Origin: Catajapyx aquilonaris
Taxonomy: Eukaryota
Length of the DNA stretch: 64,000 bases
NCBI GenBank assembly: GCA_000934665.2
Contig: JYFJ02000049.1
Span: 1-64,000, forward strand
Reading direction: 5' to 3'
Notes under the pieces: model-generated
The model's database searches: none
Told to the model about the DNA's origin: nothing
What the model saw: only the letters and a program-made list of their open reading frames with translations
In this document: in pieces, positions 9,301 through 62,720 of the stretch
Position numbering within the stretch: position 1 is the stretch's first letter
Layout of the letters: each line of letters begins with the position of its first letter
Position numbers and translations under genes: made by a program

Positions 9301-12300
9301 ATCTATACACATAACTGTTTCCATTCACACCTTTTTTCAATGAAAGAAAAATGGCTATAGGGAAACTTACATCAGCAGTTTCCCAAGTACTCTTCTTCTT
9401 TGAAGGGGGTACCTCCTCAGCTGTCTGATCCCACCTTCTTCCCCTCTTCGGGGCGGCTTTTGCGACCTCACCGTTGCTCACTGACTTCAAAGTTCCATCC
9501 TTCGCTTTTTCTACTAGCTTTTTGCGCAACTATAAAGAGAAATCATGAATGTTAGATAATGTATAAAATTAAAAACTGCAGATAAGATCAATTTCAAGTA
9601 GGCTTACCTGTGCCGCTTCCTCCTCCAACATTTTCTCTCGCATAATTTCTGGAAAGCTCCTGGAGTGCAAATCTGGGGTCTTCCCACCTGGAATGATAAA
9701 AGGGAGGTCACGCCAAAGCGTGGTGATTAGCATCTGGTCTGACACTGATTCCCTAACTGCCAACAATGGCCACGGGGATATTTCTTTTTTTTTGTTGCTG
9801 CTTCATTTGCATCTACTTGTCACCTTAATGGTGTTCACTTCAAATTATTTTTTTCAGCATTTAGTCAGAGCATGACTAAAAAATTTACATTCAAAAAATT
9901 ATTTCTTTTGGTTTATGAAAATGTTAGCAGCATTCTTGACTTGAGCATGTATACCTACATTGAAACCCAGAGCTATTTAAAAGGCCAGTTTTCTGAAGAA
10001 GGTGCCAATCACGATAATGCATACTCTTTTATGCCAAAATCTTGCCCTGCAAAATTAATGTCTCACTTGGCAAAACAACCCTTTCAAAAAACTGATCTTT
10101 TTTCCTTGATACATACGTGTCTTCATCTTCACCACAGTTCTGCAAGGATTGCACTAAAATCCTCCAGTCATCATCCTATTGGACCTAGAAATAATCTGTC
10201 TGATTAAAAATATGTATGCTGCTCACAATCACACACACACTCACTACCTCTAAACCTTGTCTCTTTTCATGCCTTTTCCGTAGTTCCTTACCAAAAACTG
10301 GCTACGTACGACTTCATGACTTTTCCACTATCTCATAGTCAACAAGCTGAACTTCAGTTACAGCATGAACGATAATATGCCACTTGAGCTTACAAACGTT
10401 TACTTTGCCTCTAATAAACTAGTGGCATATAAATGCAGCTATTTTTTTGTCTTTCAAAATACTCTCATTTATGTTTGTACTTTTTGTGCTGCAATAATCC
10501 ACGATTCCACGTAGAGCCACTTCGCTGTAGGAATTCCTCGAGGGGAGAAAAATTGAAGGGCGATTAGTAAAGGTGATCCAGGTATCCACCCAACCCCATA
10601 TTCAAGAGAGACCCACCCTTGCTACCCTTTCTAGTTTACTGCCTTTTATTTATTAAAGTTAACTGTTCTTTATATCATAGGGTTTTCCTGAAAGGCTTTT
10701 TAAAATCTTTACTGAACTGTGCAATTTAGATTCCTTCGCACTCTCACTATGAACTTGGATGCTTAGGGTTGGGTGATACCGAGCACTTCCAATGTCTGTT
10801 GCTTGAATGGTTGATGATAGCGTGCAAAGAAATTTTTACACGTGCATATCACCCAGCCCTAATTCTAGTTTCAAATTACTCATTCCATTTACTGGTTTAA
10901 ACCTAACCATCCCAATCATTCTCGCCAATCACTCATTCCTTGCATACATAATTCCTGAGCACCAACATATAGGTATGAGATGGGTGGCATTGTACATACA
11001 CTGTACTCCCGATTATCCGGGTGTGGATTATCCATGTTTCAGATTATCCGTGCATGGCTAGAACAAAGAGAAGTCTGCAAAAATGTCAATTCTTCTCCCA
11101 AACTAAGAAATATAAGACTTTTCCAGCCTAAAAATCTATGGAGATTTTTCTAATTTTGAATCGATCTTATTTAAACGAAATACAGTATGTACAGTTATTC
11201 ATTTAAAGCCTGCGAATAGCGCCTTTTACGGCATCTAGGACCATTTTCCGATCATCCGTGTTTTCCAATTAATTATCTGGTGACACCCGTGCAGCCATTA
11301 GCCCAGATAATTGGGAGTAGAGTGTACTGCTTGCAAGGAGGCATAATACAGTATCATTACTCCACAATCACACCTGTGGTAATGCATAGGGCCACCAATC
11401 TCAGTCCACCTAGAGCAGCAAGGCAGCACCAATTTCCCACCTGCTTGCGTGACACACACGTGCCCTGCTGCTCCAATATCAGTCAAACCATCTTATAAAT
11501 AAGTGTGCTAATAATACAGAGAGCAGCGCAAATGAGGGTGATACCCTTGAACTGTACCTTCTGCAAATGGATCAATCCGTTCGGGAGAGATCATCATGTG
11601 GCGCCTGCGGGCTCGGTACTCGTCCTCTCGCTCCGCTATGGTGGGGCGCCTGTGCTCCATGAACGGGTCGTAGTCTTTTTCAGGCTGGTGAAACAAAGTC
11701 AAAATATTATTACCTGCATTAATAACGCTATGCACACTTCACATTTTTGGAATGGGGCTTACCTGTGGGATGTCATTCAGGATGGATGCTGGTGCTGTGT
11801 AGCCAGGTCTTCTTTGTGGACCCAGCAGTGGTGTTTCATCTCCTTCCTGCATAACAAACATACAATGAGCAACTACTAACAACATAATTATTGTTTCATA
11901 GCATGTGTTGAACTAAGAACAGAAATTTCTGACATTACACAATTAACAATGAAATAACATGAGCATCTGAGATCCTGAATATCATCATTTGTTGCACCTG
12001 GTGCTTCCCTGAAGTCTCTTATCAGTCAGTAGGTCGGCTGACATCCTTCCATTGTTGTGTGTACCACAAATAATGCATTGACTATGAACTTCCAACCCAA
12101 AGCTAATAAAGTACCGAATTTTACGCCATATAAGACGCACAGGCATATAAGAAGCACACAAATTTCAGTAGATCATATTCAGGGGAAAAGGTTTTTAGTC
12201 TATTTTTGCATATTTGACGCAGGTCAATTTTTGAGCCATTTTTGGGGGAAAAAGGGCGTCTTATATGCCGTCAAATACAATAATAGCTATAACTGGCAGA

Positions 12301-12996
12301 TATTCAACAAGGCAAGAATAATTTAAAACAAGAGGTCCCCACTTTAAAATTTCCTCTTGTCATTCATCATATTAACAGACAACAGTATACTTTACCTCCA
12401 CATCATCATTGACGGCGATGGACGTGACGTAAACGTCATTTGTGCCACTTCCATAAATATCCTGATCGAAGTATCCCGTCTCTGTGAGGCCCACGCCATC
12501 TTTTCCTGCCTGAGCAGCTTCGAGGTCCTTGCGCCGCTCCTGCACCTCCCTGATGTGTGCATCGATGTCTGCAATGAAAAATCCACATCAATTAATCACT
12601 GTAGCATGGTCACTACACTGTGCACCGGTCACCCTACCATCCTAATGTCCAACAATCACATTTTGCTTGCTACATGAACAATAACAAATGCGGTTATCTT
12701 GTAAACAAACATGTCTTGAGTATTAAAATTACTCAGTTGCGGTAAACCGCTCATTGTCGTTTACTAATTCCATTGCGACCCACAAACCCTGAGACTGCCT
12801 GAGAGGCCCTAAACAGGGTCAGGCTTCCGGCCGGCTGGCAAAACCGGCAGCCTCCTCACAGGGCCGGGACTCACTTTTCCAGGCCCGCTAACCTCCTCCC
12901 TTCCCAATTCCATCGTCCCCTAGCCAATTCCGATCCGATTAAACCCCGATTTATTCCTCCCTTACCTTCATGGGTCTTCGGGGGTGAAGTCGCCAT
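3302..12996 (-). CDS. SF3B1: Splicing factor 3B subunit 1 (SAP155), about 16 coding exons
   Basis: Start [10 protein letters not shown] at 12996. Contains [23 protein letters not shown] repeats and the p14-binding region ([18 protein letters not shown]). HEAT repeats include [29 protein letters not shown] and [25 protein letters not shown]-terminus ...RYEIDYTL with stop at 3302-3304. Confidence 0.99.
4366..4534. repeat. Long inverted repeat (foldback/MITE-like) in an SF3B1 intron
   Basis: Arms 4366-4428 and 4471-4534 are reverse complements with 2 substitutions and 1 indel, separated by a 42-nt spacer. Confidence 0.9.
7003..7263. repeat. Two-copy 131-bp tandem duplication in an SF3B1 intron
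   Basis: Unit aatcaccctcaaaaatgttgacgagacg...caaaactggtttg starts at 7003 and 7134; two substitutions seen between copies. Confidence 0.95.
10764..10861. mobile_element. Short MITE remnant with hAT-like termini
   Basis: Termini tagggttgggtgatac and atatcacccagcccta are near reverse complements; no clear TSD. Confidence 0.5.
10997..11326. mobile_element. Tc1/mariner-pogo (Tigger-like) MITE
   Basis: TA-flanked TIRs tacactgtactcccgattatc and gataattgggagtagagtgta, with internal gattatcc subrepeats. Confidence 0.7.
12112..12279. mobile_element. Tc1/mariner-type MITE
   Basis: Imperfect TIRs taccgaattttacgccatataagacgc and gcgtcttatatgccgtcaaataca. Confidence 0.6.
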
Positions 12997-13463
12997 TTTG
13001 TTCGACGATTTTTAGACGAATGCTGCCGCAGAAAGAGGATCAGAGAGGGAGCAGGGGAGCCAACAGGAGAGGAGGGGAAGCCCACGCTCCATGCATGTGG
13101 CGCCTCCTTCTGCGGATCACGGTGGAACTACATGAATTGCCACTTTTTGTGTCACCAACAAGCACTGAAATTTAATAAATAAAATTGTAATCACATTTTG
13201 TACACCAAATTAGTAATTAGACTACTTGTGATACACTTGAAAAGTTGGCTACCCTGTCATCTGCATTAGGAATGAAAATAAAAGATGGCGTCACATTCGC
13301 CGTGAAAATTTACTAAAAAATTGTCGAAATTTTAGTGCTAATTTTGCTTTGGGCGTCTAAATTTTCAAGGTGTTTTCGTCATGCTTAGGTCATACCGGGT
13401 GCAATGTAAATTTAGAAGTAATGAGGCGTCATAATTACGTAATTTGACGGTATTTAAAAAAAA
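12997..13463. promoter_or_regulatory. Putative bidirectional promoter shared by SF3B1 and COQ10
   Basis: 467 bp separate the divergent ATGs. YY1/Pho-like AANATGGCG motifs overlap both start codons, with another near 13282. Confidence 0.65.
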
Positions 13464-14466
13464 ATGGCGAGATGGCGACAAATTTTGGGTCTGCGACTGA
13501 TCACATGGAGGACCCCTCTTCTTCCAGGCGAAGGAGCACACACTTGGTAATTTCAGCTTTTAAAAATATATATATTCATAAATAATTAGACTTGGGCATG
13601 GACATATGAGTGAGGAAGGGAAAAAGACATTACATAAAGTTATGCAATACCATGAACTCATGTGACCCCAATGTAAGCTTGGTAAATATGTATCTGCAAT
13701 TTCCCAACCTTTACTGCCTAATCAGGGCCTAATTGTAAGTGGGATCATTATGTTAATAGGATTAAACAGTTATTTCATAACAATATATTCGGTAAGACAC
13801 TAATTTTTAATTGTCTGTTTGGCAGGACTTGCGTTCAGGTTTTCAACAGCAGCACAACTAGTCAGAGATGTTCCTTTTTCACCATATCAGGGATCGGAAA
13901 CAGGAGGAAGGAGTATGCAGAACGACGACTCATTGGGTGCGGCACATCTCACAGCAATTGCAATATCATTAATAATGGCAAATAATTAACATGCCTCATG
14001 TTGCAGGTACAGCATGGAGCAGATGTATGACCTGGTGGCAAGAGTGGAAGACTACCACAAATTCGTCCCGTGGTGCAAACGCTCAGTGGTGACCTTCCGC
14101 AGTCCAACCCTGCTGAAGGGTGACATCCAAATAGGTTTTCCTCCCCTCTTGGAGAGCTACACCTCCAGAGTGACACTCGTCCACCCCAATCTGATACGTG
14201 CTGTGTGCACAGATGGACGCCTCTTCAACCACCTGCAGACAGACTGGAAGTTCAGCCCAGGAATCAAGTCAAATGATCTGACCTGCACGCTGGACTTCTC
14301 CATTGCTTTTGAGTTCAAATCAGTCTTGCACTCCCACCTTGCACATGTGTTCTTTAACGAGGTCGTAAGGCAGATGGTCAATGCCTTCCTCACTGAGGCG
14401 AGACGTAAATATGGGAAAGAGTCCATCAAGAGTCAGAAACCCACGGTATTAACAGTAGCATCCTGA
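13464..14466 (+). CDS. COQ10: Coenzyme Q-binding protein COQ10 (START domain), 3 coding exons
   Basis: Exons 13464-13546, 13826-~13937 and 14007-14466 splice in frame. An Arg-rich mitochondrial-presequence-like N-terminus is followed by [35 protein letters not shown]...[20 protein letters not shown]. Confidence 0.95.
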
Positions 14467-21801: not shown

Positions 21802-23772
21802 TTAACTTGAACGTCTCCCCTTGTTCCTTGAGGAAGACGAATGACTTTCTCTCTCTCCGTCTTCTCTCCTGTGTCTGTCTTCTGCCCATCCCCCATTCCT
21901 CTCTTGCCACTCCCTGTCATCATAACGGTGACTCCTCTTCCCATCCTCTCCCCTACTCCTATCCATGGACTTGTATTTCTGCTTACTGTCCCAGTCCCGA
22001 GAACCGTCTGTCTGCCTATCACCCCTATCCTTAGACCTGCGACTGTACCTATCCTCTCTATCCCGAGACTTGTCTCCGTGCCTGTCCTCCCTATCCCGAG
22101 ACCTGTCTCCGTGCCTGTCCTCTCTATCCCTAGACCTGCCTCTGTGTCTATCCTCTCTATCCCTTGATTTCTCCCTGACCTGGCTCCAGGAGCTTCTCTT
22201 TGATCCACTTGCCTCCTGGTCATCATTGCCCCCAACAAAGTTAATCTTGTTACCTCCCAACACCTTCTGCAAGATATCTTTAGTGTCCGAGTCGTCTGAA
22301 GAATCTGAGGAATCTGAGGCCTCCTTCGATGCCTTGGCCTTTTTCCGGTGCTTCTTCCGGTCGGATCGCTTTCTAGCTGGCTCTTCCTCACTCGATGAAT
22401 CTGAATCACTAGATGAATTACGTTTCTTCTTGTCCTTCTTATGCTTCTTAGACTTTGTCTTCTTCTTCCTCTTCTTCTTTTCAACGCGTCCACTACGCTG
22501 CTTCTCTTCCAGTTTCTTCAGCTTCTTGAGAAGCTTCTGCTTCTCCTCAACTGAAAGTGTCTTCAGGAACTTCATGCCCTCTCCATCATTTCCTTCTCCC
22601 CCTTGCCCTTCTTCGTCATCCTCTCCGTCACTCTCTATAAGCATCTGATTGGAGCGCGGCATCTGCTCTTGCAGGCCCAGGGCACTCTTCTTCAGTGCCA
22701 AGCCATCTTCCCTCATCTGCTGCATCAGCATAAGTGGATCCATTGATGCTGCAGGCTTTGCATTTGCAGAGGCCTGGCCATAAAGTGGACACTCTTTGTC
22801 TGGAAGCAAGAACACAAGTGATATAGCAACTGTCTCCAAACTAAAGCAAGACATGCAAAAGGATGGTTGCACAACTTGGGTCATATCAAAAGGTGCAAGT
22901 TTCTCCTTGTTTTATGAATTGTTGGTTAATAATTCTAACAATTACCTTCATGTCAGAAGTTAATTAATTTCCTGCACTGCCAAGTAACAATAACATGAAC
23001 ACGTTAATTGGCTTACCTGTGTTAATATGGCCCCATTTGTGACATTTGACACATCGAACGTTGCGAACTTGGATGCCAAATGGTTGGTCTCGGATGTCTG
23101 TGTTGTCTTTGCAGTAACTGAAATTATATCAAACGGTAAGTCACTAGAGGCTTGGAGTAATGATATGGCTATGCTGTATGCAATCACATGATACAAATGT
23201 ATTGTTCTGACGTGTATCCACCAACAGCACATGTGGGAGACAAAATGGTGACAAAAGCCTACTTACTCTTCCCTGGGTGCATTGTACTTTCGCTGCCATT
23301 CAAACTTGTACTCCGGCTCGCCATCCTCCCTCTCCCGTTCTTTTTTCGCACCCGGGGGCGGCTCGTACAGGAAATTCACGCTGAGCTTATCCTTGTTGTC
23401 CTTACTCAGCAGCGCTCTGAAAGCAACAAATTAAGTTAATCCCACTGTATGAAAATAGCGCATGCAAGTAAATACGCTTACCGATTATTGTACAAATCCT
23501 GCTCCTTTTCATACTGCATCCGAAGTTCTTCCTGCTTTTTCTTATAAGCATCAGTCTTCTGTTCTGCCATCCATACCTGAAATGTCAAATTGTTACCATA
23601 CAATTTGCGCGATTTTTCGCACCAGGTCATATACTGACAACAGCATGCGATTAACATAGTACGACCTTTGACCTTAATGTAAAAAAAGGCAGTTTCTTAC
23701 CCTCTTGAGGTTATCCCTGGATGCTGGATGGAAGAACTTCTTGCACATGTAGTTGTTGAATCCCTTCCCCAT
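21802..23772 (-). CDS. CIR1: Corepressor interacting with RBPJ 1, 5 coding exons
   Basis: Start [24 protein letters not shown] at 23772, then [43 protein letters not shown] (zinc knuckle) and a K/S/RD-rich tail. TAA at 21802-21804. Confidence 0.95.
22052..22172. repeat. Coding 33-bp tandem repeat in the CIR1 last exon
   Basis: About 3.5 units starting at 22052, 22085, 22118 and 22151, encoding (K/R)SRDREDRH(G/R)xx. Confidence 0.85.
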
Positions 23773-24325
23773 CTCTGCGCCGTGGATTAGTCCTGATGGA
23801 ACAACATATGCGTGTCATGTGAATGTGTGTGTGGCAATAACAAAAAAGAGAGAGATGCCGAGAGAGACGCAGCACAAACCTTCAGGGCTTCACTAGAGAC
23901 ACTTTTTGCTGTTCCGTTCCTTCGAATCCTTTTCCCACGAGCACTGGCTCGTCCGACGACGTCTGGCGATCCAAAGAGTCGAATGATTCACTGCTTGCTC
24001 GTTCGCCAAAAAAAATAATATAAGGGGGAAAAAAAAAGAATGATGAAAAAAAAAATGGCAACCCGGAAGTGGAGGTGCCACCCTTGCACAACACTAATTT
24101 TCACTTATTAACATGTCAATTTATGACTGATAACTTAATTACGGCCGTAGATACATTTAAATTAATGTGCTTATGTTATAAGTATAATTGCAGTAATCAC
24201 CATTCGGATGTGAGAGGTACGGTCGCTGTCTTCGGCGTCGGCCATGTTTGGTCCAAATTTATCAAGGCGCGGAATTTGAAGATTTGTGCTGCCTGTGAGC
24301 TAAAATGTGAAAAAACTACTGTTAT

Positions 24326-24709
24326 AGTAGGGGTAAGCTAACTTATTGGTTTTGGGAGGTGGCTTGTGTCCTTGGCAACCATAATTAGCCCCGCCCCCTA
24401 CCGGTCGACCAATCAGGATTCGATTTCAAAGGAGATTGGCGCTAAACTACTGTTATAGAGATATGGGTAAGCTAACTTATGGGTTTTGGGAGGCGGCTTG
24501 TGTCCTTGGCAACCATAATTAGCCTCGCCCCCTACCGGTCGACCAATCATGATTTGATTTCAAAGGAGATTGGCGCTAAATTTTAGAACATAGCGCCCAT
24601 CTCCTTTGAAATCGAATCCTGATTGGTCGACCGGTAGGGGGCGAGGCTAATTATGGTTGCCAAGGACACAAGCCACCTCCCAAAACCCATAAGTTAGCTT
24701 ACCCCTACT
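24326..24709. repeat. ~120-bp module in three copies (two direct, one inverted); foldback/MITE-like
   Basis: Copies at ~24326-24444 and ~24465-24578, with an inverted copy at 24591-24709; all nearly identical. Confidence 0.95.
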
Positions 24710-25431
24710 TTAGACATGTTACATTTAAGAAATTAATGTTTAAAACCATGTTATAATATTAATTAACACACACAGCTGTACAAGTGAGCACCAAGGACAA
24801 CGTCTATCCTGTGGATTAGGCATCGCATCGAACAAGCGAGATTGTCGGATTGCTCTGAATTGACTAGACAGCCAGGATAAAACCACTCTTCCGCAAGTCG
24901 TCGCAACAATCGGGGAATTGTTGGAGAAACCCCGTGCAAAAAAAACCCACGTCACAAGCGGAGAGTGTTGGACCCAACATGTCCGTCGCGTACACCCAAC
25001 CCAGACCCTATCCGCATCCGGCCGCATTCCAAAGGGATATGATATGCCATATGCGGCAAGTTCTCATAAGGAGTCAGCGTAGCCAACAGAAGGCAGGCGT
25101 ATCCGTCTGTGCGTGCGGTTGACGCCCTAAAACCACTTCGGAAAGGTTCCACTGAAGGTAAATAACTCCCCTGGCCCCTATCCCTCATCGTCCGGCGCAT
25201 ACCGCGGATCATACGGACTGCCCGGACATTGGTTTGGGTGGACTCACTGCATGAACAAGGGTTGGGCTAGGCCTGGGGGGGGATTAATCAACAGAAAATG
25301 GAAATGGGCAACTAAAAAAAAAAAGATCAAAATGGCCACCTGGGTCTTAACATGTTCGATTTGGGTTCATTACACGTTCATTATGTAAAATTTTGTGGTT
25401 TTCAGGACACCATAAGCTGGAGGGGGGCTGA

Positions 25432-26731
<1,300 letters not shown>

Positions 26732-28403
26732 TGGCTGAGTTATGCATAAGCACGGTAAGCACCCTCATGGTTTGTTTTTAAAGAAATTGATGGAAACTGG
26801 AGCGCTTTTGTCTTTTAGGTGACGAGAACCCACCCCCACCATGATACAACTTCGCAAAGTGGCATCGGTTCCTGAAAACGAAGCTTTTATACATGTGAAG
26901 GGGGGAAAGTGTGACGTGGGAGACTCGCATTTTTTGCATCGAAAAATGGAAAAATATCCCAGGGTGGTGTGATTTTTACATGCGCTATATGGCAGAGAGG
27001 GAAAATTGTATGCCAAGACTGACCACAATTCGTTACAATTTTTTTTTCTCGTTATAATTTGTTTGTCGTGGATTTTTTTATAAAAAAAGGTACACAGGTC
27101 AGTAAGTGTGGGTTACTTTCCCGAATATTGCAGGAAAGTGGTGACAACAGTATTTATGCTTTACATTCAATCTTGTTACTACTCATTTTTGTTGGTTTTC
27201 TTTATGCAGTAGTCACCATCACTAATGTAACATCTTTGTTTATGTCAAAAAAAAATGAAGTTAACTAAGGGACACCTTCCCTTGACTAGTCTATGATTTT
27301 CTTCGTAGTTTTAAGTCATGCCAACTGAGCTGGAGATCAGTCAATTTGACATGATTTAAAACCCAAAAAAAGGGGGTATGGGTAACATCTATCCCAAAAT
27401 CAACATCACAAAACAAAAAAAAAGGGACATAGATATTTAGAGTAGCTCATAACATCTACATGTTATCTATAACAGCCCAATATTTAATGACAAATAAAAC
27501 TTCCTATGAATTCAACTTGTTGATGTAAAGGTGAAAACACGGCTGCATTTAACTGGGTTTTATTTTTTGTTGCAGAGTTGGGGGGTGGGGAGGTTCAAAA
27601 TAAAGCTTTTTGGTTTCCAGACATATACCAACAGGATTGGGAGGTATCACGCACTGAGTATCTTTCGTAACGTTTAACAGTAAAATCGCCACTGCTCGTG
27701 TTACGAGGCAAAACAAATAGTGCACTCGCCTTGCCAACCACAATATCGAGGCAATTGTTGAATAGTTCCACAGATCTCGGTAATGCCCTGCACTTCATAA
27801 ACAGATTCCTTCACATTCTCACGTACATAAAAGCACATCACACACAGCACGAGAAACAAACAATGCGCGTCAAGTCTCGTAAGATGCAGACAAGATTCCA
27901 TGACTGTAAAATTGAACTGGAATTCAGACTTCACATTTGCAAAAACACATCAACAAAAATTAGACCCAATGGATATAAAATACTGTCAGATTCCAAGAAA
28001 ATTTATGGGCCCAGCATAAATTGCAAATACTGTGTGACCCTCAAATTTTGCAAACTCCTCCCAAAAAATACCAGATGATGTCGAGTTTAAAATCACAACT
28101 CGCTTATATCTTTGGAATGGTTTTATGTTGCAATTTTTTTTTTTCTAAGGGCACAGGAGAGAGGAGGGGACAGGGTAAATATTTCACATTATTAAAATTG
28201 TTACTTGTCCAAGAAGATGCTGACTGATATGTAAAAAAAGGGTTTCTTTTCGTGCACCACTGCTCAAGCTGCTGTCTTTGTAATGCCCCTCTGCGTTGAA
28301 CTACAGATCAATCGGCATGTCAGCTGAATTCACTTACTGTACACATTCTGTAGTCACAATAATACTGCACTCAGGTGTCTGACATTTTTTGTTGACTTAA
28401 GCC

Positions 28404-31400
28404 TCACATTTTTCTGGGAGGTGGTGGCGGAGGTGGGGCAAAACTTGGCGGGGGGCCAATGTTGTGGTTGTTCCGACTGGCAATGATGGGCGGGGGTTTC
28501 TTCTCCTTCACTGGGATGTTTTCGTAGATTTGCTTTGGAATCTCCTCTGGTGGTGGCCTGTCATTGAAATTATATTTTTATAACATTTGTACTAAATATG
28601 TTGTTTTTGCTGCAGTATTTACATGCCATATTTCTGCCCATTACCACACTTAAACCAAGCTATGATTTGATAACTAATTCTTCGAAATGTTCGATGCATT
28701 AAGCAGCCCAGGGACATTTTGGGACGAGTGATCTACAAGCCTGCAGACACATACGACCCACTGTATAAACAAGTTTCACTGTACTGAGGCAAACATGTCC
28801 TTTTACCATTTGTACCAGTTGAATAAACTGACCTTGGAAGGAAAGCTTCGGAAGATGCTCTGGTGGGTCCTTTTTTGTCCCTGTTAAGGGTACCTGGGGT
28901 GGTGGGTAGAGACACAGTGGACTTTGACAACGCCCGCATTGGGTCTCCCCCACCTGCTGCCTCGCTGGAGTACTTAATGTTTGTGTATTCACGTCCCAGC
29001 TGTATGCTTTTCTGTTGACAAACGGTGCAGGTGATGAAGTGGCTGACCTTAAAACTCTGCATACTAACACAATTCAGGTGTACTCGTAAAAGCACCGCAT
29101 CAATACTACCATTGTTGCCAATAAAGATCAAATTAGAAGTGCACCTGCCTATTTGAGAGTGCAGCCAGGAAAGTGAGAGGCTGGTGTGTAAGCAAGGAAC
29201 TTACTTGTTCAGCCTGCATCCGCTGGGACACAGTGTCGATGTATTGCTGCACAGCCAGGTAAACAAATTTATACTGAGCTTCAGTCTGAACCATTCCTGA
29301 CCTTTGAGAGCGCACCCACTGAACTGTTCTTTGTATGTCAATCTCACAATCCAGTCCTGCAAAATTTAATCCACAGCATTGATATCGGGATGGATCAAAA
29401 GTGGATGTGGGCATGTACCTTGCTTTTTGATCTGGTCTAGAATCATATCTATAACTATGAAAGTTCCAGTGCGGCCTATCCCAGCGCTGCAGTGTACAAC
29501 TATGGGACCTGCGCATGGTATAGCCTCCTGCTTGGCGTTGGTGTCCTGAAGAAAGTTGAGCACACACCCTGGATCCGAAGGAACCCCGTGGTCAGGCCAG
29601 GCCTGGAAGTGGAACTGAAAAATCTCCCTCTTCTCCTCCAATGCTTCCTGGGTGAACAGAAACTCTCGGAGGGTGTAGTCCTTGGTCGATGATTCCTTCA
29701 GATTCTGGATGCAGTTCTTGCCGTACTCTTTTGTCTGGCCTTCGTCTGGCCAATATCTGGCACATTTACTCTGGGTAAACAAATAACCTCAGGTTAATAG
29801 GCCATGCCTTTCATGTTTGTATTCCTTAAAAATTGTAATAGCATTGAAATCACATTCTGTTATTCAAAGACGGATCTCACAATACGAACACTTGCACAAG
29901 TGCACATTACTTCCTGTTACACAATAATTGTGATGTAAATGTCAATTCAGTAACTCAAGGTTCAATTGACTGTCAATAGCATTTTGTATTACAGTTTACC
30001 ACCCGCTCTTGAGTGAATTCAATTCGTACAGACTGCAAAATTTTGCGCAAAAAGGCTCAACTCATCTGAATCCAAATTCAACTCACTTTCCCTCGTTCAA
30101 ACTCCTTGGTGGTCATCACTATGACTCTCGTGTTTTCTTGCCACACCATATGCCAAAAATCTGCCGTTGTGTTGGGCAAACATCCCTGGGTAGCAATATA
30201 GTACTTTTCTGGCACATCGGGACATAAGTCTTCTTCAGGCTGAGAGTTGAATTAAGGTATTAGAATGACATCTCAAAAGGTTACTCTTAGAACTGGTTTG
30301 TTTAAAAATATCTCACTCTAATATAATTTGCATTGACATAGTCAGCTCCTGGTCCTGTGGCCTCAGTATCTCTTAGCAGCACTCGCGTGTGGTCAACTGA
30401 AAGTGTATTGCAAATATGCATACTGTCTCTGTGGTTTCATCATTTTTTTTTACATGGTAACTGCGGATACTCACAAGGAAGAATATTTTTGTATCTATTC
30501 TTGTTCCGGTTCTCTGGTTGCTGACCTTCTTTTCTCGAGTAGAGATGTTTGCACTCTTGCTGTTGTAAATTTTCAAACTCTTCCCAGAATCCTGCTTTGC
30601 CTGCGCTCTGTCCGTTTTCCTTCTAGGGGGAAATCTCTCATCAAACACGTAGCATATGCCAAAAGTATGGCAAATCTCATTTGCTTGTTCAGAGTGTGTA
30701 CCTGGAGTTCCTTTACTCGAGTGTCAATCCCGCTGGCACTGATTCTCGTGGCGTTGAACGGCTGTTTCAAGTGAACAACCGTGCCACTCGTTTCCACCAT
30801 TGGATTTTTTTTGTAATGCTCTATCAGTTCCGTCAAGCTGTCAAATTTGTCACCTCCACCTACGTCAAACTTGTTGTCCTGGAAACGGGTGACAAGAGAT
30901 TTAAAATGCTGATCCCACCCACAACAAAAAAAGGAACCGGATTTCTCACTTACTTGGCACCTTATCATGACGTGAGTGACTTTGTCCTCGGTCCTGACTG
31001 ACAGAACATAGTCACCAGGTTTGCTTTGAGACTCCCTAACCAAAAAACTCCCGTTTTTACCCCTCTCAAGGATGAGTTTCTCAGCCTCCTTTCCAGAAAT
31101 GTGGCCATGGAACCATCTGTAACAAATCACATCTCGACTGGTGAAAACGTCCTAATTTTAGTTTCAACCTGTTCAACTCACCTTTCTGAAGTCGGATCAG
31201 CACAATTCAGAGGATACCTCAGTTCAATCACTTCCCCATTCTTCTGCTTCAGCTGCCCTTGGTTTTCCATATAAAACTGCACCAATTCGGAGAGAGTTGC
31301 GAATTTCTCGCCGCCATACAGATCGTAAAAATCCCCAGTGTTTTGAATCTTAATATGCGTGACTTCTCCACTTCGCCTGTTCCAAAGACATTTATTTACA

Positions 31401-34400
31401 TTGGTTATTAACACTCCTTTCAACACACACACACACACCTGACAAAATTCAAGGTGACTTACCTGACTGAAAGTGTAAAGTCACCTGGGTTGCTATGACT
31501 GGGTCTCGCCAAAAAACTGCCATCGAAACCTCTGTTCACCAGCAGTATTTCCGCATCTACACCTGAGATATTGGGATGAAACCACCTGTAAAATAACAAA
31601 GGCACCATGTACCACCTCTTACTACAACCAGATTAACACATGCACCTGTAAAAGGAGAAGTTGTACGTGCCGTACATAAATAACAAGAAAAAAAAGAAAG
31701 TGACAGAAAAATAATAATAAATGTATGTAAAAACCCTGCACCGTACCACCGAACATGAAGAGGTTGGCACTAACCTTGGTCGAGTAGGAAGAGTACACAG
31801 ATTCACCATGGAGTTGCTAATGCTGGCCATTACTCCAAATTCAGCCTCCAATGACTTTCGCAACTCCCAAGAAATTACAGGTACACGTTAGACTTGTTTC
31901 GCATCTGTCAACAAGGTTTGTACACCATAACCTTGAGAAGCACCCAAAAAAATATCCATCCTATCCACTTCTACAAAAACAAGTAACAAGAATATGCATC
32001 TCCGGCCATTTATGTCCCTACATTCTTTTAAAAATCCCAGCAGCTTGAAGTGACACTTTTTGGTATGGAGGTTTTAGGTGCAAGGCTCGAGGTTTTAGGG
32101 AAAAACAAGTCCTCATCCTCCGGGTCCATCACATCCACTGGAGGGGTCCTGGCGCCTCCAATTTCGCGCAACGCCCACGCAAAACTACTAACCCGGATCC
32201 CCCTACCCACAAACTGTTTTTCAAGCCAAAACATCCTACCTTTCTTACAAAAAAGACCAAGCTTAACTTGCGTGAGACGCAAAATGTGGCTTTGCATGTT
32301 TGGAGCGGCCGCATAAATATTGCGCAATATTCCACCAAGGTGTACGATTCCGCATTAATTTGCGTGCAAAAAGATGACACACTTCAAAAAAAAGGGGGGG
32401 TCGGCATGCAAAGGTAATTATGTTGCAGAATATACGCGAAAATCTCACATGAACTGCAAAAGCGCGCTAATCTATACTGGCTGTACTATCCGGCCAGCCA
32501 GCACTATCTGCTGTAGTACAGTACACACCCAGCAAATTCCAGCCGAATGTGCTAACGATAACAACGCATCCATGTTTGGCAGGAAACAATTTTTTTTTTG
32601 CTGACTTTACACGAAATTTCCGCAAATGAAATGCACTGTAGCCGTGAGAGCATATCGCAGAAAAGTTTGCCCAGAAATATCTGCTCTCTGGCAGATATCG
32701 CGAATTTTTTGTGTGCAAAAAAAAAAGTTGTTTGAGAGCTCTAAACCAGAATTCGTACAAACTCAAAGAGAGACCTTTTTCCCTCCCCTCTGTAGCACCC
32801 CCAACCAAAATCAATAGTACAAGGAGACGACTCTAGACTGCGGGATGCTGTCGGAAACTGCACCTCTGGAGCCGGCAATTTTCGCGATTCCTGTCGCCAA
32901 CACTTGCAAAAACTGAACAACAAATTCCGCCGAATATGCAGGAAACACGGTGCAGCAGCCAGAAAAAGTGACGGATTCTGCCCACACAGACCAAGCGAAA
33001 ACATTTCATACATAAATAAATTTTTGCGATACCTCCCATCAGCTGGTGGCAAATCCGTCCGATTCATCCGCCTGCAATTCTTATTAACCTGTCTTTCGCA
33101 CCTGACTGACACAATTATTCCAAAGTGTTGAGAGAGCAAACGCACTGACACTGACACCCAGAGGTCACCCAAAAAATGCATGATGGATGGCAGTGTGGGT
33201 CCGCCAAAAGCCAGCCAAAGGTCTGAAGGACAACCGCCCCTCGGTGGCAATTATGCTAATTGGAACTATCCCTTTTCTGGATACACGGAAGTCGTCTTCC
33301 TGTGGCTTGTACCTGGTACGCAGATGCCTGAGTACGGCCTCGTGTCGATGAACCGCGATTGCTCTCTTGGCACTTGATCGTCTCCGGACCTTCCCGAAGA
33401 TGCTGTGGGATGTGGACCGAACCGGAAAGACGTTGGTTCCGGATGACGGAGCCGATGCTTTCAGATGATGGAAGAGTCTGTATAGTCGCCTCCACATCGC
33501 GGCCCTTGAGGCTGAGTTGCCCATCGTGTCTCCTGCACTACACTGAGGCTCCCATCCCCCAAGTCAGTCACACTCACACTGCTTCCTCCTGCATTCCGCC
33601 AACAACCCAGTCTCTAAGTTTAGACCAGCCAACACCATAGAGGAAAAAAAAGGGGGGGCCTTGGGAGAAAAAAACACGTGTACCACACGCGTTTCAAGTC
33701 ATCCGGAAATCCCCCGTGAAATTTCGTTTGAATATTATTCTGCGCCCAAATAGAGAGCTGTTGCACTTCAAGGTGGTTGGATCGGACCACGGTTGTTAGG
33801 TGTGACCTGCTCGAATGCTAACGACGGTCGGTCCCCCACTAAAATCCGCGTTTATGATCACACGGCCCATAAATAGCCGGAGCAGTAACTTTCATTACTG
33901 GCAAAATTCGATCCACCTTAGGCTTGCGTTCATGAACCGCTGCCCTCTTCTCATCTACACCGTTCATGCTCAATTATCTTCAGTGTGAAGCACAAAAAAA
34001 AACTACAGTATTTTACTGCCGGTTCAAGTACTGATCAAGGTGTGAGTCAGGGTACCAACACAATGCAAGTGACACAAAACATATGATAGCATACACGCAT
34101 GACCATTATGGCATGTGTCTGAAAACATTTGACATGGCAAGCGCTGGCATGTAGATCCTCCGTTTGTTTGTACACTGCAAGGCGTAACACCATGTATAAT
34201 TATGATCCTGTTGTGGTTATGCTAGAGTTGGGAGGTGACGAGAGAGCCACAAGAGAGAGGCCATGGGCCCTTCTGCTTCCAGCTTGATTGTCCCAATTGA
34301 GGCCCCAAATTAAGTCCAATGGGAACTTCCTGCCCTGCTGGCTGCTAACTCTTGCTTGACTCTCCCCCCCATATGCCAACAGCATCCACCCCCCCCCCAC

Positions 34401-38386: not shown

Positions 38387-39290
38387 CTCTCAGCTTCCTG
38401 CTGCTGCCCTCCTCCTTCTGCTAGCAGTCCAAGGCTCCCCTCGATGGCCTCTCCAGTCCTTCCTCTTCCTCCTGGGGTTACGTGCTGTGGTCCTCGCTGA
38501 TCCCTTGGGTCATACCAGGAGAGGGGCACCGGGGGTCGGCTTCTGGACCAAGTCAGGCTCCGACCACTGGGCGTAGACGAAAATGACATTCGGTCGCCAT
38601 TTTGCCTTTTTTCTTACGGAGGCGTTGCCAGATCCACAGGGGCATTACTTGTCCTCATTTTTAAAGAGGAGAACACTCACTTACGTAATTGTTACGTGTA
38701 ACTTGCTTTGAAATTACATGTTAGGTCCAACGACACTTGCTTAGTTTATAAGTCCTTATGAACAGAGGCATGTCACTGTTTATGGCCACCTTTGAAGCGC
38801 GACGTTTGAAGAATTACTGAACCATACCTGTACTTCCTTAAGAGTGTCATGTACTATGTACAGTACAGTGCATGGCGTCAGATTATGAAGGGTGATAATC
38901 GAGATGATAATGCTTGTTGTGGGTAGTATTTTATATGATTTTTACTACTGCTTTGTCTGTAATTTGTCTGAAAATTAACACGACAAGCCAAGTAGGCCTA
39001 ATGTGTGGTGAATGCTCAGAAAACATTCATATCTCATTCTCAGATATTCAGGTAATGCTGTCGTTAATTTATAACATGCATTCACACATTTATTAGCATT
39101 TACTGCATTGTCATGTAATGTCAAGTGAATAATAAGCAGCAATGCTACATTACAAATTCATTACAATGATATTGAACAAAAAATTGTATTTCCAATATCG
39201 ACCATTGATGTTGACTTGAGGTATTGAACATTCATTGAACATTCACTGTTACTGGAACTTTACACACTTTCTGTCACTTCCACGCACTGT

Positions 39291-46115: not shown

Positions 46116-50208
<4,093 letters not shown>

Positions 50209-50295
50209 CTAGGCCTAGCAGAACATTACGTCCACTCTCTTTCCCCCCTCCATCCCTGTTCCTCCTCTTCCCTTACTCCAACTCCGGATCCTTAC

Positions 50296-50500
50296 CCGTC
50301 GCGGCAGGCACCCTGTTGTCCTAGAATCCGGATCGAGAGGTAACCGTGGGCCGGTCCCTGCCCCGTCGGGTCACTTATTCGATTGACTACTGCGAATAAG
50401 ACCACACCTCAATCGGGGGGTGTAGTGAGAGAGGAGAGGGGAGGCCAAAAAGGAAGAGGGGAGAGAGGGGAGGGAGGGGAGAGGGGTGTGACGTCACCGC
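50296..50500 (-). promoter_or_regulatory. Proximal Rho1 promoter and non-coding first exon
   Basis: CGG|GTAAGG donor at 50296/50295, acceptor at 50162, CpG-rich sequence, a purine tract and a perfect CRE TGACGTCA at 50489-50496. Confidence 0.6.
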
Positions 50501-50884
50501 CCGATCCACAGAAACAAGTGACGGTCAGGATGCGGCCGAAAACGTTCGATTCCAAGAATTTTTCTATTTTGCTTTTCAAGTGCTCACCAAAGGGTTGTTA
50601 CAGGAATATCATTTCCTGTTTAATAGTTAGGAGTATGCAAGGTAAGGAGAGAGAGAATGAGAGAAAAAAAGGTTATGCAAGGATATTTTGGAATGGGTTG
50701 CCCGATGGGGTGATGCCAGGAATGTGTGGAATGCCATTGTCCCAGGGGCAGAATGGGCGGGTTTGTAGATACGTGGGGACCATCACGGACGTGGTGGGGA
50801 CTGTTATCAAAAATTTTGGCATTGGGAGGCAGGGAAGTACACTTGCTACAAAGGCAGAAGTTGAAAGGAATCAGTATTGTCGTC

Positions 50885-50886
<2 letters not shown>

Positions 50887-50943
<57 letters not shown>
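50887..50943. repeat. (AAT)19 microsatellite
   Basis: Perfect trinucleotide run. Confidence 0.98.
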
Positions 50944-50944
<1 letters not shown>

Positions 50945-51996
50945 GCCCTAATTTCATTGTCTGTAGTAAAGCCTATTAAGCCTAATATGAATAATTTAAA
51001 AGCAGTTGTGTATACATGTAATCATATTGTAATGCGCAATTGCTATAGAAATGGAACGGATGCATTATTTTTAATGCCGTGTGATGCTTTTTAGCAACAA
51101 AAAAAATCATCATAAGAGCATTAAAAATTGATGCTCCATGAGAGACTCACCAGTGATGCTTTTTTAATATATAAAAAATTATTTGCGGTTTAGAGTGTAA
51201 TTGCTAAGAAATGGAGCGGATGCAAAGTCCTGTACGTACTGGTGTTGGTGGTTAGTTTCTCAAACTCGGAGGAAGGGTAAATATAGTGCGATGGCGTGAT
51301 CATATAAGGAGGCGGAGGTTCATGAAGAAATTGCCGATGTGGGGGCATCTGGACTGGATTTATTTGCGTGCACTATAGTTACTCTATGCACAGTATGGAA
51401 TGAGTCCAAGGCATTTAGCGCATGACGACGGGTCTGGACTTGTTTATTTTTGTAATAAATATGCCGGGCGGACGGGCGGCACGTGCGACCGCTTTTTCAA
51501 AAATCCGTTGTTCTAATATTTGCAGCGTACATGTTGATAATACAAGGGGGAAAAATGTTATTTGCGTCACGTACACTTTTTTCCGGTTCTTATCAGGAAA
51601 TTCTGTTTATGTAGGCTGCAGCATATGAATTCTTAATGGTCTCCTGCGAGTTATATCTGTACGTATAATTTATGCAGTGTGTGGCCCTAGAGTTCACCGA
51701 CACATGCCTTGCAAATTGCAATTATTGACTATTCCACAAGCTGCAGGCTGGGAGAAAATGCCATATGTCAAAAATGGGGTATGTTCAGGTCATTTGCTGC
51801 ACATTACGAGTTTTCACTATTCAATGAATCAGTTATGCAAGCGCAACTGGTTATGTACAGAGAGAGAAAAAAACGGTGTCATTTTTCAATGTCAAATTCA
51901 AACGTGAATTAACTCATTACCCTCCATATACAGGAAACAGGCTTGATGACGCCCAAAAAAATTGTGCGCACATGCATATTGATGTAGTCATCTTAC

Positions 51997-52185
51997 CTGG
52001 ATACCTCTGGGAGTTCCTAGCCTTCCTTCGCCTTGCGGGCATCTCAGGCCACGTTATAGCGATGCTTCACGCTTCTCTAGCTCCAAACGTTCCAAGGGAA
52101 TGAAGGGTAGTCGAGTAGTAGAAGGCGGGGGCGGGAAGGGGCTCAAAGTGACGAAGGAAAAATAACCGGCCAATGAGTCACTCCG
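51997..52185 (-). promoter_or_regulatory. Candidate distal Rho1 promoter and non-coding first exon
   Basis: CAG|GTAAGA donor at 51997/51996, GC boxes at ~52124-52135, CCAAT at 52170-52174 and AP-1 TGAGTCA at 52174-52180. Confidence 0.5.
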
Positions 52186-54761
52186 AAAATGACTTCACTT
52201 TTTTTGTGGTAGTGTGTGCTTCACGGATAAACATCCGCATAACATAAACACAGTCTTGCTATTTCGGCGTTTCCCACATTATCGCGCGTGTCGAGTGTTG
52301 CACACCGCCTACCAGGTACAAGGGTCTGATAAAATGTGGGACTCCTCTTTTGGCATTGGGACAAAAGGAAAAAAGGGGGGAGGACGACTGCAATTTTTAG
52401 CCTTGCGCAGATATGGGGAGGTTTAATTGCGCCCGTGATGATCGTACTGTGTGTAGATAATGTATGATGGGGGTCATGTGTGGTGGAGATGGGCAGTTTC
52501 CCCCTGAGTCATGCATTCCGAACAATGTTCTGCTTTCTTGATTTCGGGTTTTGCGCATGTGGGGAACGTTGCCCCCTTGCTGCGTTTGGCATTTCGGAGG
52601 ATTTTCGGGGGTGAGGGTTTGTACTGCGAGGGTGGGGGGAGTATACTATACCCGTGAGGCGACAGGGGTGATTGAGGGATGTGCAGTCCGATAATGAACA
52701 TATCTACATAATGACCACTTGAAATGCAGGACAGAATTGCAGTTTGGTCGAGATTGTACATTACTACGCATGAAGTTATATTTATAGTTTTTGAGAGAAA
52801 AATATTGTAGCCATCTACAGTTACATAAATGATTGGAAAAAAATTAAACGCACTATAGTAAGTAGCCTACAAGGAACATGCAATCTTGAAACTTCATATC
52901 TCGAAATCAGTCAAATGTGACTGATTAGGCTGCTTTTCCATATGTTTTTCCCTTTCATGTATTCACGGCGGTATTTGACAGGCACAGAACCATTCAATAA
53001 CATGGCAAAATATCAGTTTTTATACAATAATCAACAGTTGCAATGTTATGGAAAGTCAAAAGTATCGACTAATAACATTTACTAGTGGGTTTGATTGTAT
53101 TGGCATTTTCAGGCGACTCACTATGTGTACTGTATCATTGCATTGATATCCTGAAGATATCATTAGAATCTTGTTCAAATAGTACTGGTATTCCCTAGGC
53201 ATATCTCAAACATTTAGAACTTAAATGTTAATGAATATGATGAGCTTTAGTATTATTAGTACCTTGTTAGTACTAGTTTTGCTGTTTACACACTAATAGA
53301 GTCAAACACGAATATTTTGACAGGGTCATCACTCATATTACAAAAAAAAATCTCTCTCATTCTTATATAATGGCACAGTATGCAGTAGGCAGTAATTTAA
53401 GAGTGCTCGGTGTACCTGACGTATTTCCACAGTAGGAAATGTCACTACCTCCCCACTTGCCCATACAAGGTCAAAAATAATTCACATTTAAATCACCAAC
53501 TAAATGCATGAGAAACATACCTTTCTTACAATTCCAGCCTCCTGTGTCGGATGACACGCAGAACATGGTGAATTTTGTGAACAGAAATGATGAACAACTG
53601 AACATTCAAAGAATTAATAGCTAAATCAGTGAGTAATTATGCATAGTATTTAGCACACTTGTGTATTTATGTTTTTATTGGCATACCATTTCAGCAGGGG
53701 TTGCGGGGAAATGGCGAAGTATACACTTGAAGTGCAAAGACCCTTTGAAGTGTATAGCCTCACATTTAGCCTTTTCTCTGCTTATCATTTCTGACAGGAC
53801 TCATGGTACCTGCTCTTTAGTTGGCTTACCTGTAATAGTTGTCATATCACTGCAAAGTTTACATCTTGACAACTTCAGCTTTTGGCCACCAACTTTTCAC
53901 TTACAAGCACAGTATATGTGATGGAAAATTTACAACGTTTAAACAATGGTCCTTGCAGTCAGTGAAAGGGAAATAAGAGGACAGGGAGTAAACCGTACAA
54001 TATTGCATATATTTATTTGCAACGTTATTAAACAACTTGCCGAGGCACTACAGCTACTTCCTGGGCACGGATCTGTGACACAGGTGGAATTCCGTGACAA
54101 CCAAATTCTCACTCATCAAACTTTTTTTTTTAATCATCATTTTTCTGAAGTCTCAATATACGTACGTTGCAGCCATGCTTATCTCTGGCAGTATGCCCTT
54201 GGAATTTAATATATTTACAAAGTTGCACTCTACAAAATTAACGTCTTTCGCACTGAAATGCTTATATATGTACACAAAAATGAATCTCGAACATGGCAGA
54301 CACGGAGTACGCAGTAGCAACACACAGTTTAGCAGCAAGTCTCATTTTTGTTACAGCATAGAATTCAAACCAGACTTGTCTATTTTCATTTTTGGAATAC
54401 TGAATTAGAGTACCTTTTTTTTCTGTCAGCTGGTGCTGCCCTCTGAAGAAACTCCAGGCTTTCATGATTCATAAGGAACTTGGTGGACAATAAAAAAGAC
54501 ACCTTTTTATATAGTCCTTGCATGTATATACATGACTGGTGTCCTTTCACTTTGCTCATATCTACACACCAACACTCACCTTATGCAGTTTTAGTAAATG
54601 CAGCGATAAAGACACTCTTGACAAAGCTTATACAGGTAGGGGGAAGTTGAAAGGTTGTGTCCCAGAGATGGCAGTCTTCCCTTTGATTGTCATAGTGAAA
54701 ATTTCATGCCTGTCTCTGGCACTTCATGGGAGGATGGGGGATGAGTTTGGGTATCTATATA

Positions 54762-57700: not shown

Positions 57701-60014
57701 CATTTATTTTTAACTTCAAGTTCAGAGTGCAGCAAGAAAAATACCAAAATATTTTTTAAGGGTGCAAACAAATTACTACCTTCCATAAATCTCATTTAAT
57801 AGAAATTAAAACCAAGTGATATACTGTAGTTGCATCAAAAGACCTACTGCTGACCACATTCCATGAAGAAAAATGAACAATATAATTGTTATTTACTTTA
57901 CAATTGACATTTTGTACATGACAGTACTTACAAGGCACAGCACATTTGATAATTGTGTATCCCTCATTTGATACATTCACATATTAATTATATTCCAAAA
58001 TTAGTCGTGCAATATTTATGTTTTATTATGTTTATTGATATTGATTTATTAATACCATTATTTCATCCTGAGGAGTTACTCGTACCGGTACAATTATAAT
58101 TTTAAAAACATATTAATCAGTTTGGAATAAAAACAACTGCTGCAGTAAATAAAGAAATGGCAATGAGTGGCAACCAACCAGAAAAAAACTTGAAAGGATC
58201 TGAGTTGTGCAAAATCTCTGCAAGAAATATGGCCAAGTCCTGCCACATACTGTTGTTTACAATGGTACAGCATTTCAGCCGCAGTTCACCTTACAACATC
58301 TTAGCCTTCGCACTTACTTGAAGGAATGTGGAGGCATCCGGTTCACAGGCACACTCCAAGTCCTCCAGCAGTTCTGCCTCCTCCTGCAAGGGAATGAATC
58401 CCTGCACACATAAATGTCATTCCCACATGACAAAAAATTAACTCTCGGGTACCTGTAGTCACCACTCAACTCACCTCGTACTGCACCTGGAACTGGGGTC
58501 TAGTCACCAGCAAAGTAACTGCTTCTGTGCTCTCAGCAAACAGTGCTTCTGCCTGCTTCTGACTCGTTATGTCCACTCCATTCACCTGTACAAAGGCGAG
58601 CAAATATTGAATAAGGTAAACTGGCATTGCATGGCTGTAGTACGGTAGCCAAAAAAATTGCAATAAAATACCTGAACAATTTGGTCTCCCTCTCTAAGCC
58701 GACCATCTTTACCAGCTACACTCACAGGACATATGGCACTTATGTACACTTCTGTGTCTGTCTCTTCCGCACCTGAACTGTAACACAAGGTCAGGCCCAA
58801 CTTCTCCTCAGTGAAGCCGCGTTGTAGCGTTACTTCCTGTTAATAAAAGACACCGCTTAGATTGCACTATAAAGCAATAATTGTAATAACAATACACCAT
58901 CACAGCAAACAAAAGAAAATGTCCTAACATACAATGGTGTCAGTTGCACCTAAATTATTCCTCTGGCTTTGCACCAGAGACGTTTTAACATTCGTAAATC
59001 TTTGCTATATATTTTCTTAGCACTAATGGGGGCAGTTCCACAGCCTTGGTCACACTATTTCTAGTCAGGCATTTATTGACTTTGCAGCCGAACAAAATGG
59101 TCCTGATCCATTTGATCTCGGCAGTAAATCCCCATCGAATGGTATGGGAAAGCTACGCTGTTTCCTGCACATATTTTGGACTAAACCCCAAAGGAGTGTC
59201 GGTGGATTTGGCACGTCTCGTCCTTCTCCGTCTGTTTTCCAACCCCCCACCCCCACCCCAACCCTCTTCATTCTTTTCTCTCTTTTTTTTGTCGTCTTGC
59301 TTTTCTTTTTTGTCCCCCCCTGTGACTGCGACACAAACCTTTCTCCCTCTGCCACATTTCAGTCGGCTGCAAATTACGGAAATGCGAACAAGAGTAAAGT
59401 CTCAAGTCCTCGGGTATTTTTACGGCCCCATTTCGTGGGGTGTAGGATCAAATCCGCGCTCGTATGGTTGTCATCGGCGCCGAAATATTTGGCGGAACCC
59501 AGGCAGCTGCAGATGGGGGGCCCCGTACCTCGTAGTCGAGTTCGGCGGACAAGAAGTCCTCGAAGCTGTCGTCGTGGACACCGTCGCTCTGGAAGACCAC
59601 TGGGACTGGACCGATGTGCTCTCCGTTGGGGGCCAGAAGAAGTGGGTCCGCCTCTCCTCCGCTCCAGAGGCTGAGGGTGGTCCATTCTGTCTGGACAGCA
59701 ATGGACACCACCGAGGCTTCAGGGTTGTTGCAAGACCGGGTACCGCTGTCACCTCCACTGTCACTGCTGCTCACGCCCACACTGAAACATATACGTTGTG
59801 TCAGAATTATTGTGTCATACCTTGTCCGGTGATGGACTAACCTGTTAGCACTGGCGTGGGTGCTGGTGCTGGCGCTGTTGGACAGCACGGTGTCCGTGGC
59901 TCCGTTGCCATCCTTGTTCCTCCGGAGCACCTCCACCACGATGGGTTCGTCGGCCAACTGGAAGGCCTTCACTGCCTCCTCGTGGGTGGCACGGCTCAGG
60001 TCCTGTCCATTCAC
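54762..60014 (-). CDS. PDZRN3/PDZRN4/Slip1-like PDZ protein, 3' part (5' exons not found in window)
   Basis: Exons ~59842-60014, 59529-59781, 58672-58836, 58475-58585, ~58318-58402, 56948-57587, 55355-56263 and 54762-55145. PDZ segments [18 protein letters not shown] and KLGLTLCY...[15 protein letters not shown]. Family motifs [54 protein letters not shown] and C-terminal LLSVTTV. Confidence 0.92.
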
Positions 60015-62554: not shown

Positions 62555-62720
62555 GCCCGTTCAGGCTGTCATGGTAAGATGACCCAATCGGAGTACACAA
62601 CGGTCCTGAGTTCGATCCCCGGCGGTTTTAGCCATCTTGTCACGTCCTATAGCTTTAGGTGCTGCTGGAGGGACGACCCAAAGTGGCCACATTGGGTGGT
62701 CCCTTCCTGTCCTATTATGC
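62555..62720 (+). mobile_element. Degenerate tRNA-derived SINE (possible)
   Basis: B-box-like gagttcgatccc at ~62608-62619 preceded by an A-box-like ggctgtcatggtaag; no cloverleaf or TSD resolved. Confidence 0.4.

Follow-up and report, generated by a model that had tools for sequence, protein, structure and literature searches.

We analysed a stretch of 64,000 nucleotides from Catajapyx aquilonaris (Eukaryota; NCBI GenBank assembly GCA_000934665.2, contig JYFJ02000049.1, positions 1 to 64,000 of the forward strand), which is referred to below as the window and whose coordinates are used throughout. The minus strand of this window carries the gene for the SHP2-type phosphatase PTPN11/corkscrew (csw), and the long first intron of this gene holds a candidate alternative first coding exon, here termed exon 1b, which is the subject of this report. 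Protein matches to one of the PTP-domain exons of the gene are headed by arthropod PTPN11/corkscrew sequences with 61-76% identity among the 120 proteins listed for this query, and no vertebrate SHP2 is found among these 120. A vertebrate (teleost) origin of the gene was set aside on these grounds, and by its matches the window would come from an arthropod-like, probably pancrustacean-like invertebrate. Conversely, when the listed arthropod proteins are compared with the window by tblastn, they match at 64-71% across the whole PTPN11/csw gene. The features of the locus are as follows, with a slash marking an exon boundary here and in the text:

38386-38373, minus strand: coding part of canonical exon 1, ATGGGATCAAGAAG (MGSRR/), with the donor AAG/gtaaaa
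38372-31586, minus strand: intron 1, 6787 nucleotides, the one long intron in a gene that is compact elsewhere
32001-34250, no strand assigned: CpG-rich patch enclosing exon 1b, with an observed/expected CpG ratio of 0.76-1.01 in 500-nucleotide windows versus 0.54 for the window as a whole
33553-33640, minus strand: three upstream ATGs (33638, 33594 and 33555) opening frames of 24, 6 and 5 codons
33542-33546, minus strand: loose initiator-like TCAGT, 20 nucleotides 5' of the candidate ATG and 3' of the last upstream ATG, noted as a lead only
33313-33524, minus strand: candidate exon 1b, 70 codons (P0001) plus the AG of a split arginine codon
33524-33522, minus strand: first ATG of the frame, in the context gacacgATGG (A at -3, G at +4) and followed by GNSAS
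33474-33497, minus strand: MWRRLYRL, codons 10-17, the strict motif described below and core of a predicted amphipathic helix, whose Met10 is a possible alternative start
33307-33312, minus strand: putative splice donor gtacaa after CAG, matching the consensus at -3 to +3, with C at +4 and A at +5
31585-31463, minus strand: exon 2, the start of N-SH2, with the acceptor ttttacag/G, the first bases GTGGTTTCATCCC and the donor CAG/gtaagt
28400-31462, minus strand: remaining PTPN11/csw exons, coding for the end of N-SH2, C-SH2, the PTP domain (motif at about 29494) and the C-terminal tail

The canonical leader encoded by exon 1 is identical in one of the relatives (P0066), and downstream of intron 1 the gene has short introns and occupies about 3.2 kb in all. 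An earlier sequence-based reading of this DNA, the first-pass annotation, had placed exon 1b inside a 6.8-kb first intron and had described an ATG in good context opening 70 codons that end at CAG/GTACAA in the phase needed by the N-SH2 exon. All of this holds on the minus strand: given that exon 1 ends at 38373 and exon 2 starts at 31585, the length of intron 1 follows as listed, and the ATG at 33524 is the first one after the nearest in-frame stop on its 5' side, a TGA at 33566. The last base of exon 1b is 33313, and its terminal AG joins the G at 31585 to form an arginine codon, so that the junction reads R/W directly into N-SH2. There are seven in-phase GTs in the open frame, and AG precedes only the one taken as the putative donor after 33313. 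The stop-to-stop open reading frame (ORF) that contains the exon spans 33563-33165 (132 residues), the frame thus remaining open for 49 further codons beyond the donor (33165-33312, minus strand), and an unspliced transcript would encode a peptide of 119 residues; by our estimate about 10% of frames of such composition would run on in this way by chance.

The frame by itself is not exceptional. In 500 block-shuffled versions of the intron, with any in-phase GT allowed as a donor, an in-phase frame from ATG to GT of at least 70 codons arose in 55% of cases, and the number of distinct donors for such frames averaged 0.8 compared with two observed. Frame length and phase alone are not beyond chance; long open frames occur here because the region is GC- and CpG-rich and therefore has few stops. 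Codon usage was likewise uninformative: log-odds derived from 3167 codons within the window gave 0.03 for the candidate and 0.13 for one of its other frames, a measure without power here, as held-out true exons ranged from -0.10 to 0.30.

A different picture emerges from the N-termini of relatives, for which we surveyed the best 120 proteins listed. The start of N-SH2, WFHP, lies within the first 150 residues in 55 of them, and it is preceded by a leader of 12 residues or fewer (e.g. MSSRR or MGSRR) in 37 of these and by a leader of more than 12 residues, fused directly to WFHPN, in the other 18. Long leaders being present in 18 of 55, alternative first coding exons at the WFHPN junction are common in arthropod gene models. 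An arginine stands directly before the tryptophan in 49 of the 55, and the split codon AG/G of the candidate likewise codes for arginine. The motif MW.R[LV]..L is found at leader positions 6-13 in half of the long leaders (9/18); these belong to Penaeus, Panulirus, Palaemon, two damselfly genera and further assemblies, and their leaders end in L-[KR]-x-R/W.

Long leaders joined at R/WFHPN occur in annotated or assembled isoforms of decapods, an isopod, damselflies and a stick insect. Among the damselflies they include isoforms X3 and X1 of Hetaerina americana (P0038 and P0044) and X2 of Ischnura elegans (P0036), and among the decapods X3 of Penaeus indicus (P0054), a protein of Penaeus vannamei (P0122), X8 of Panulirus ornatus (P0031) and X2 of Palaemon carinicauda (P0085). 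Three further ones are transcript-like assemblies (P0055, P0057 and P0069) on contigs of 2.8-4.4 kb with a coding sequence of about 2.1 kb; as such contigs leave no room for introns, these long-leader isoforms would represent spliced transcripts. The candidate resembles all of these isoforms in that the short N-terminus is replaced, the junction is R/WFHPN, an N-proximal MW.R[LV]..L is followed by a variable middle, and the leader ends in L-[KR]-x-R. They differ from it in lacking a glycine at position 2 (Gly2) and in an identity of just 10-28%. The decapod leaders, which conserve a lead-in MM[TS].K, are also shorter (46-50 residues) and carry acidic residues mid-leader. Long basic leaders at WFHPN that lack the strict motif are found in Bacillus rossius X2 (P0005, with MWRRV), in Armadillidium nasatum (P0120, ending in ...LRLKGR) and in a thrips-like assembly (P0062); the homology of these three to the candidate is weaker than that of the strict-motif relatives. 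The first-pass annotation had called the exon hidden, which is apt for the Catajapyx aquilonaris genome only: gene models and transcript assemblies of other arthropods already include isoforms of this kind.

The survey also brought to light a second family of arthropod isoforms, in which a leader of the form ...LPAA.III..A..LRR... is fused directly to the C-SH2 exon (WFHG.LSGKEAE). These isoforms lack N-SH2, the autoinhibitory domain, and are seen in Timema (P0021, P0033-P0035 and P0040), Lycorma (P0037) and Diptera (P0096, P0099 and P0107). Two regular expressions for the C-SH2-joining leader had no match in the window.

The likeness of exon 1b to the relatives' leaders was assessed by motif, profile and alignment. 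In all six frames of the window, amounting to 127,996 codon positions, MW.R[LV]..L occurs once, at 33497, that is at residue 10 of the candidate. A profile built from nine leaders of relatives with the candidate left out (A1) scores the candidate at 12.7 bits, with a single-sequence E-value of 1e-5; when the residues of the candidate itself were shuffled 20,000 times, the score was never attained (maximum 11.8). With an earlier profile of 11 relatives, the candidate ORF ranks first of the 2117 six-frame ORFs of at least 20 residues in the window. As the choice of the candidate preceded any look at homologues, the single-sequence statistic is the appropriate measure, although the signal remains short. 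In a nine-row alignment (A3) the leucine of RHL-R-T-(R)/W is invariant (9/9 rows), and identity between the candidate and the two damselfly leaders amounts to 28% and 23%; it has SSG[TA]N in common with them and is of comparable length (70 residues versus 78-79).

Wider profile searches extended this set very little. Searching 90% clusters with A1 retrieved 13 proteins, 12 of them SH2-PTP proteins; beyond the sources of the profile and their near-copies, which make up nearly all of the matches, this added P0122 and a fragment (P0123), so that the search contributes little added breadth. A search of 50% representatives (A2) gave 13 matches, of which six consist of many matched stretches, three are leader-only fragments and four match the WFHPN anchor only. 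Neither of these profile searches, of the 90% clusters or of the 50% representatives, yielded new taxa. Two long repeat proteins (P0124 and P0135) with units ...CSMLSFRLKGRWTP... match the leader profile via their RLKGRW end only and were rejected as false positives; P0125, P0127, P0129 and P0130, with many matched stretches, look like translated repeats and were taken as false positives as well.

The predicted leader is strongly basic, with 12 arginines, 10 serines, 9 alanines and 6 histidines. Its charge is +15/-1 overall and +5/-0 in the first 30 residues, and its first acidic residue appears at position 62. Within the first 35 residues the most amphipathic 14-mer covers the MW motif, with a hydrophobic moment of 0.69; the motif coincides with the most amphipathic 14-mer of this region in seven of nine leaders (six of the eight relatives). 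The first acidic residue of the relatives falls at positions 18-32 in six of eight and at positions 3-4 in the other two. AlphaFold2, run on a nine-row alignment, predicts helices at residues 4-23 (predicted local distance difference test score, pLDDT, of 71-82 for the block) and 53-69 (56-64), separated by a low-confidence middle, with a mean pLDDT of 60.

Exon 1b lies within the CpG-rich patch listed above. A CpG-rich sequence had been noted earlier at about 33600-33900; 33600-33899 indeed has an observed/expected ratio of 0.99 against 0.54 for the window, and the patch proves far wider, reaching from about 32000 to 34250. Comparable patches are seen at the 5' ends of other genes in the window (12001-13750; 23001-25250, upstream of an RS-rich gene; and 49501-52750), with a further one at 59001-63750, and the canonical PTPN11 promoter is weakly CpG-rich (38501-39000, ratio 0.76). 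From its composition the intronic patch can be read as resembling a CpG-island-type promoter.

In light of the above, we propose that exon 1b is probably the orthologue of a first coding exon that serves PTPN11/corkscrew, in several arthropod lineages, as an alternative to the short exon encoding MGSRR or MSSRR. It is the homology to the relatives' leaders, and not the length of the frame, that makes the exon probably real. Transcription would begin in the intronic CpG-island-like patch, and splicing would join the end of exon 1b at 33313 to the start of the N-SH2 exon at 31585, giving a full SHP2-type phosphatase preceded by a basic leader of 71 residues in three parts. The first of these would be a short variable lead-in, MGNSASRAA; the second, the conserved cationic amphipathic helix followed by a disordered Ser/Arg-rich linker; and the third, a basic helix ...AVLRHLRTR running directly into N-SH2. 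The conserved helix would set where this isoform is located, and a myristate on Gly2 may, in the present lineage, reinforce it in an Arf- or Src-like manner.

Several points weigh against this proposal. The donor of exon 1b is weak to fair, having C at +4 and A at +5; frames of this length and phase are as frequent in shuffled introns as described above; and three ATGs precede the candidate start within 115 nucleotides, which would be a load on translation should the transcript begin further upstream. With the 11-leader profile the window-level E-value is just 0.1, and an unrelated ORF (26975-26781) follows at 0.11. Pairwise BLASTP of the leader against the Hetaerina and Bacillus isoforms is not significant (E-values of 0.5-7), and a direct search with the 70-residue peptide among proteins of 124-2000 residues returned 51 candidates, none of which scored, so that no near relative with the exon emerged from it. 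That the conserved helix might keep the enzyme at the surface of a membrane or organelle, rather than leaving it free in the cytosol, is purely conjectural. Finally, the only experimental reference point that emerged also weighs against it: shrimp 'LvPTPN6', a SHP cDNA cloned using RACE, has a short N-terminus with SH2 at residues 4-87, and the protein was reported to be mainly cytoplasmic in S2 cells (PMC9276969). This shrimp protein belongs to the same gene family as the candidate, and it differs in that its SH2 starts at residue 4 without a leader; its cytoplasmic location would be the baseline from which a long isoform departs.

The first-pass annotation had gone further, proposing that the first ATG is used, that Gly2 is myristoylated and that myristate together with the basic leader anchors a SHP2 isoform constitutively at the plasma membrane. 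The alternative first exon in this proposal is supported by the motif, the L-R-x-R end, the profile and the CpG patch; the myristoyl anchor we consider doubtful. It is true that MGNSASR, with Ser at position 6, matches the N-myristoyltransferase pattern G-{EDRKHPFYW}-x(2)-[STAGCN]-{P} (as in PROSITE), as had been claimed for the consensus; that the ATG, with A at -3 and G at +4, is the first after the stop at 33566; that the first 30 residues and the leader as a whole are positively charged; and that an amphipathic helix comes directly afterwards, as in Arf-type anchors. In the relatives, moreover, the MW motif is preceded by 5-12 residues, which puts a start upstream of Met10 in line with the family, and the conserved lead-in MM[TS].K of the decapods suggests a start a few residues before the motif, which makes use of the first ATG plausible here. 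However, the pattern arises by chance at 22 of the 1996 ATGs of the window that are followed by seven open codons (1.1%), and at eight of the 1996 with Ser or Thr at position 6. Gly2, furthermore, is not conserved, being found in none of the nine motif-bearing relatives, whose leaders start with MM or MP. Myristoylation is therefore not the conserved function of the exon, and Gly2 would at best be a lineage-specific addition to an older helix. A transcription start between 33524 and 33497 would also make Met10 the initiator. The canonical leader MGSRR/W has an MG start too, and its tryptophan at position 6 violates the pattern, as judged by eye.

Compared with known lipid anchors, the candidate leader is like those of Src and Arf in its MG start, in having a small residue at position 6 and in the basic residues and amphipathic helix that come next; it has no homology to them, and its own lipidation is a pattern match only. 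Membrane-targeted forms of corkscrew and SHP2 bearing the Src myristoylation signal were engineered in Drosophila and mammalian work of the 1990s-2000s and act as activated alleles. The parallel lies in a myristoylation signal placed before N-SH2, as MGNSAS would supply naturally; those forms are artificial fusions, whereas the candidate is a match to a sequence pattern.

Another explanation, which we hold to be unlikely, is that exon 1b is open by chance and lies in an intronic CpG island acting as an enhancer or as the promoter of a non-coding or antisense transcript, its likeness to the leaders being coincidental. The ordinary length and phase, the scarcity of stops in GC-rich sequence, the 49 codons left open past the donor, the non-significant pairwise BLASTP and the window-level E-value given above are all compatible with this. 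They are to be set against the facts that the candidate, fixed before homologues were seen, ranks first of the 2117 ORFs and beats 20,000 of 20,000 shuffles, that the motif, found nowhere else in the window, stands as far from its start as would be expected, and that the family's L-R-x-R end falls at the one in-phase AG/GT.

It is also conceivable, if rather improbable, that the exon is real and its leader acts as a mitochondrial presequence or other organelle signal, giving rise to a dedicated organellar SHP2 isoform. Older work places SHP2 in mitochondria. A more recent report of SHP2 in mitochondria (PMC10047203) would accord with such an isoform, as would the cationic amphipathic N-terminal helix, the richness in arginine (12), serine (10) and alanine (9), the absence of acidic residues before position 62 and the position of the first acidic residue, at 18-32, in six of the eight relatives. 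Against it stand the acidic residues at positions 3-4 of two relatives and the fact that a matrix presequence would not usually carry a myristoylated Gly2. CpG-rich DNA within a CpG-depleted genome can mark a recent insertion, and for this reason the patch of about 2 kb might be a young transposable element or other repeat containing the frame, which is very improbable given that neither terminal inverted repeats nor long direct repeats are seen in it (pairs reach at most 21-23 nucleotides at 74-81%), that none of its eight ORFs matches a Pfam family at E-values up to 1 and that the window holds no second copy of the motif.

SHP2/corkscrew has been pictured as a cytosolic enzyme that is recruited to membranes solely via its SH2 domains. 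If exon 1b is what we take it to be, arthropods would keep a second SHP2 isoform whose location is preset by a helix before N-SH2, and in Catajapyx this helix may also bear a myristate. On a bolder reading, which we offer as speculative and think unlikely to hold in full, the MW-helix leader would be an ancient, at least pancrustacean, targeting module; an internal promoter would supply a second, surface-bound pool of SHP2/corkscrew; and the N-myristoylation site gained here would make this a natural constitutively lipid-anchored SHP2. The literature searched contained no natural myristoylated or alternative-first-exon SHP2 or csw, and the long-leader isoforms are undescribed in it. For annotation, the PTPN11/csw gene of the window should be given an additional 5' exon and, probably, an additional promoter.

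The neighbours of PTPN11/csw in the window are SF3B1, COQ10, a coiled-coil gene, the RS-rich gene and a Rho GTPase gene. The CpG patch at 12001-13750 lies between SF3B1 (minus strand, exons at about 3600-8600) and the COQ10-like START-domain gene (plus strand, about 13990-14466), and by its position it looks like a shared divergent promoter of the two. That at 49501-52750 comprises the 5' exon and upstream region of the Rho-family GTPase gene (47547-50208, minus strand); ORFs at about 50620-51021 include an extended stretch of codons for Asn or Ile, which points to a trinucleotide repeat just upstream of this gene. Rfam and tRNA scans of the whole window gave no matches. A further cluster of ORFs is found on the minus strand:

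55220-60086, minus strand: further ORF cluster

Position 42779 of the window is a single N.

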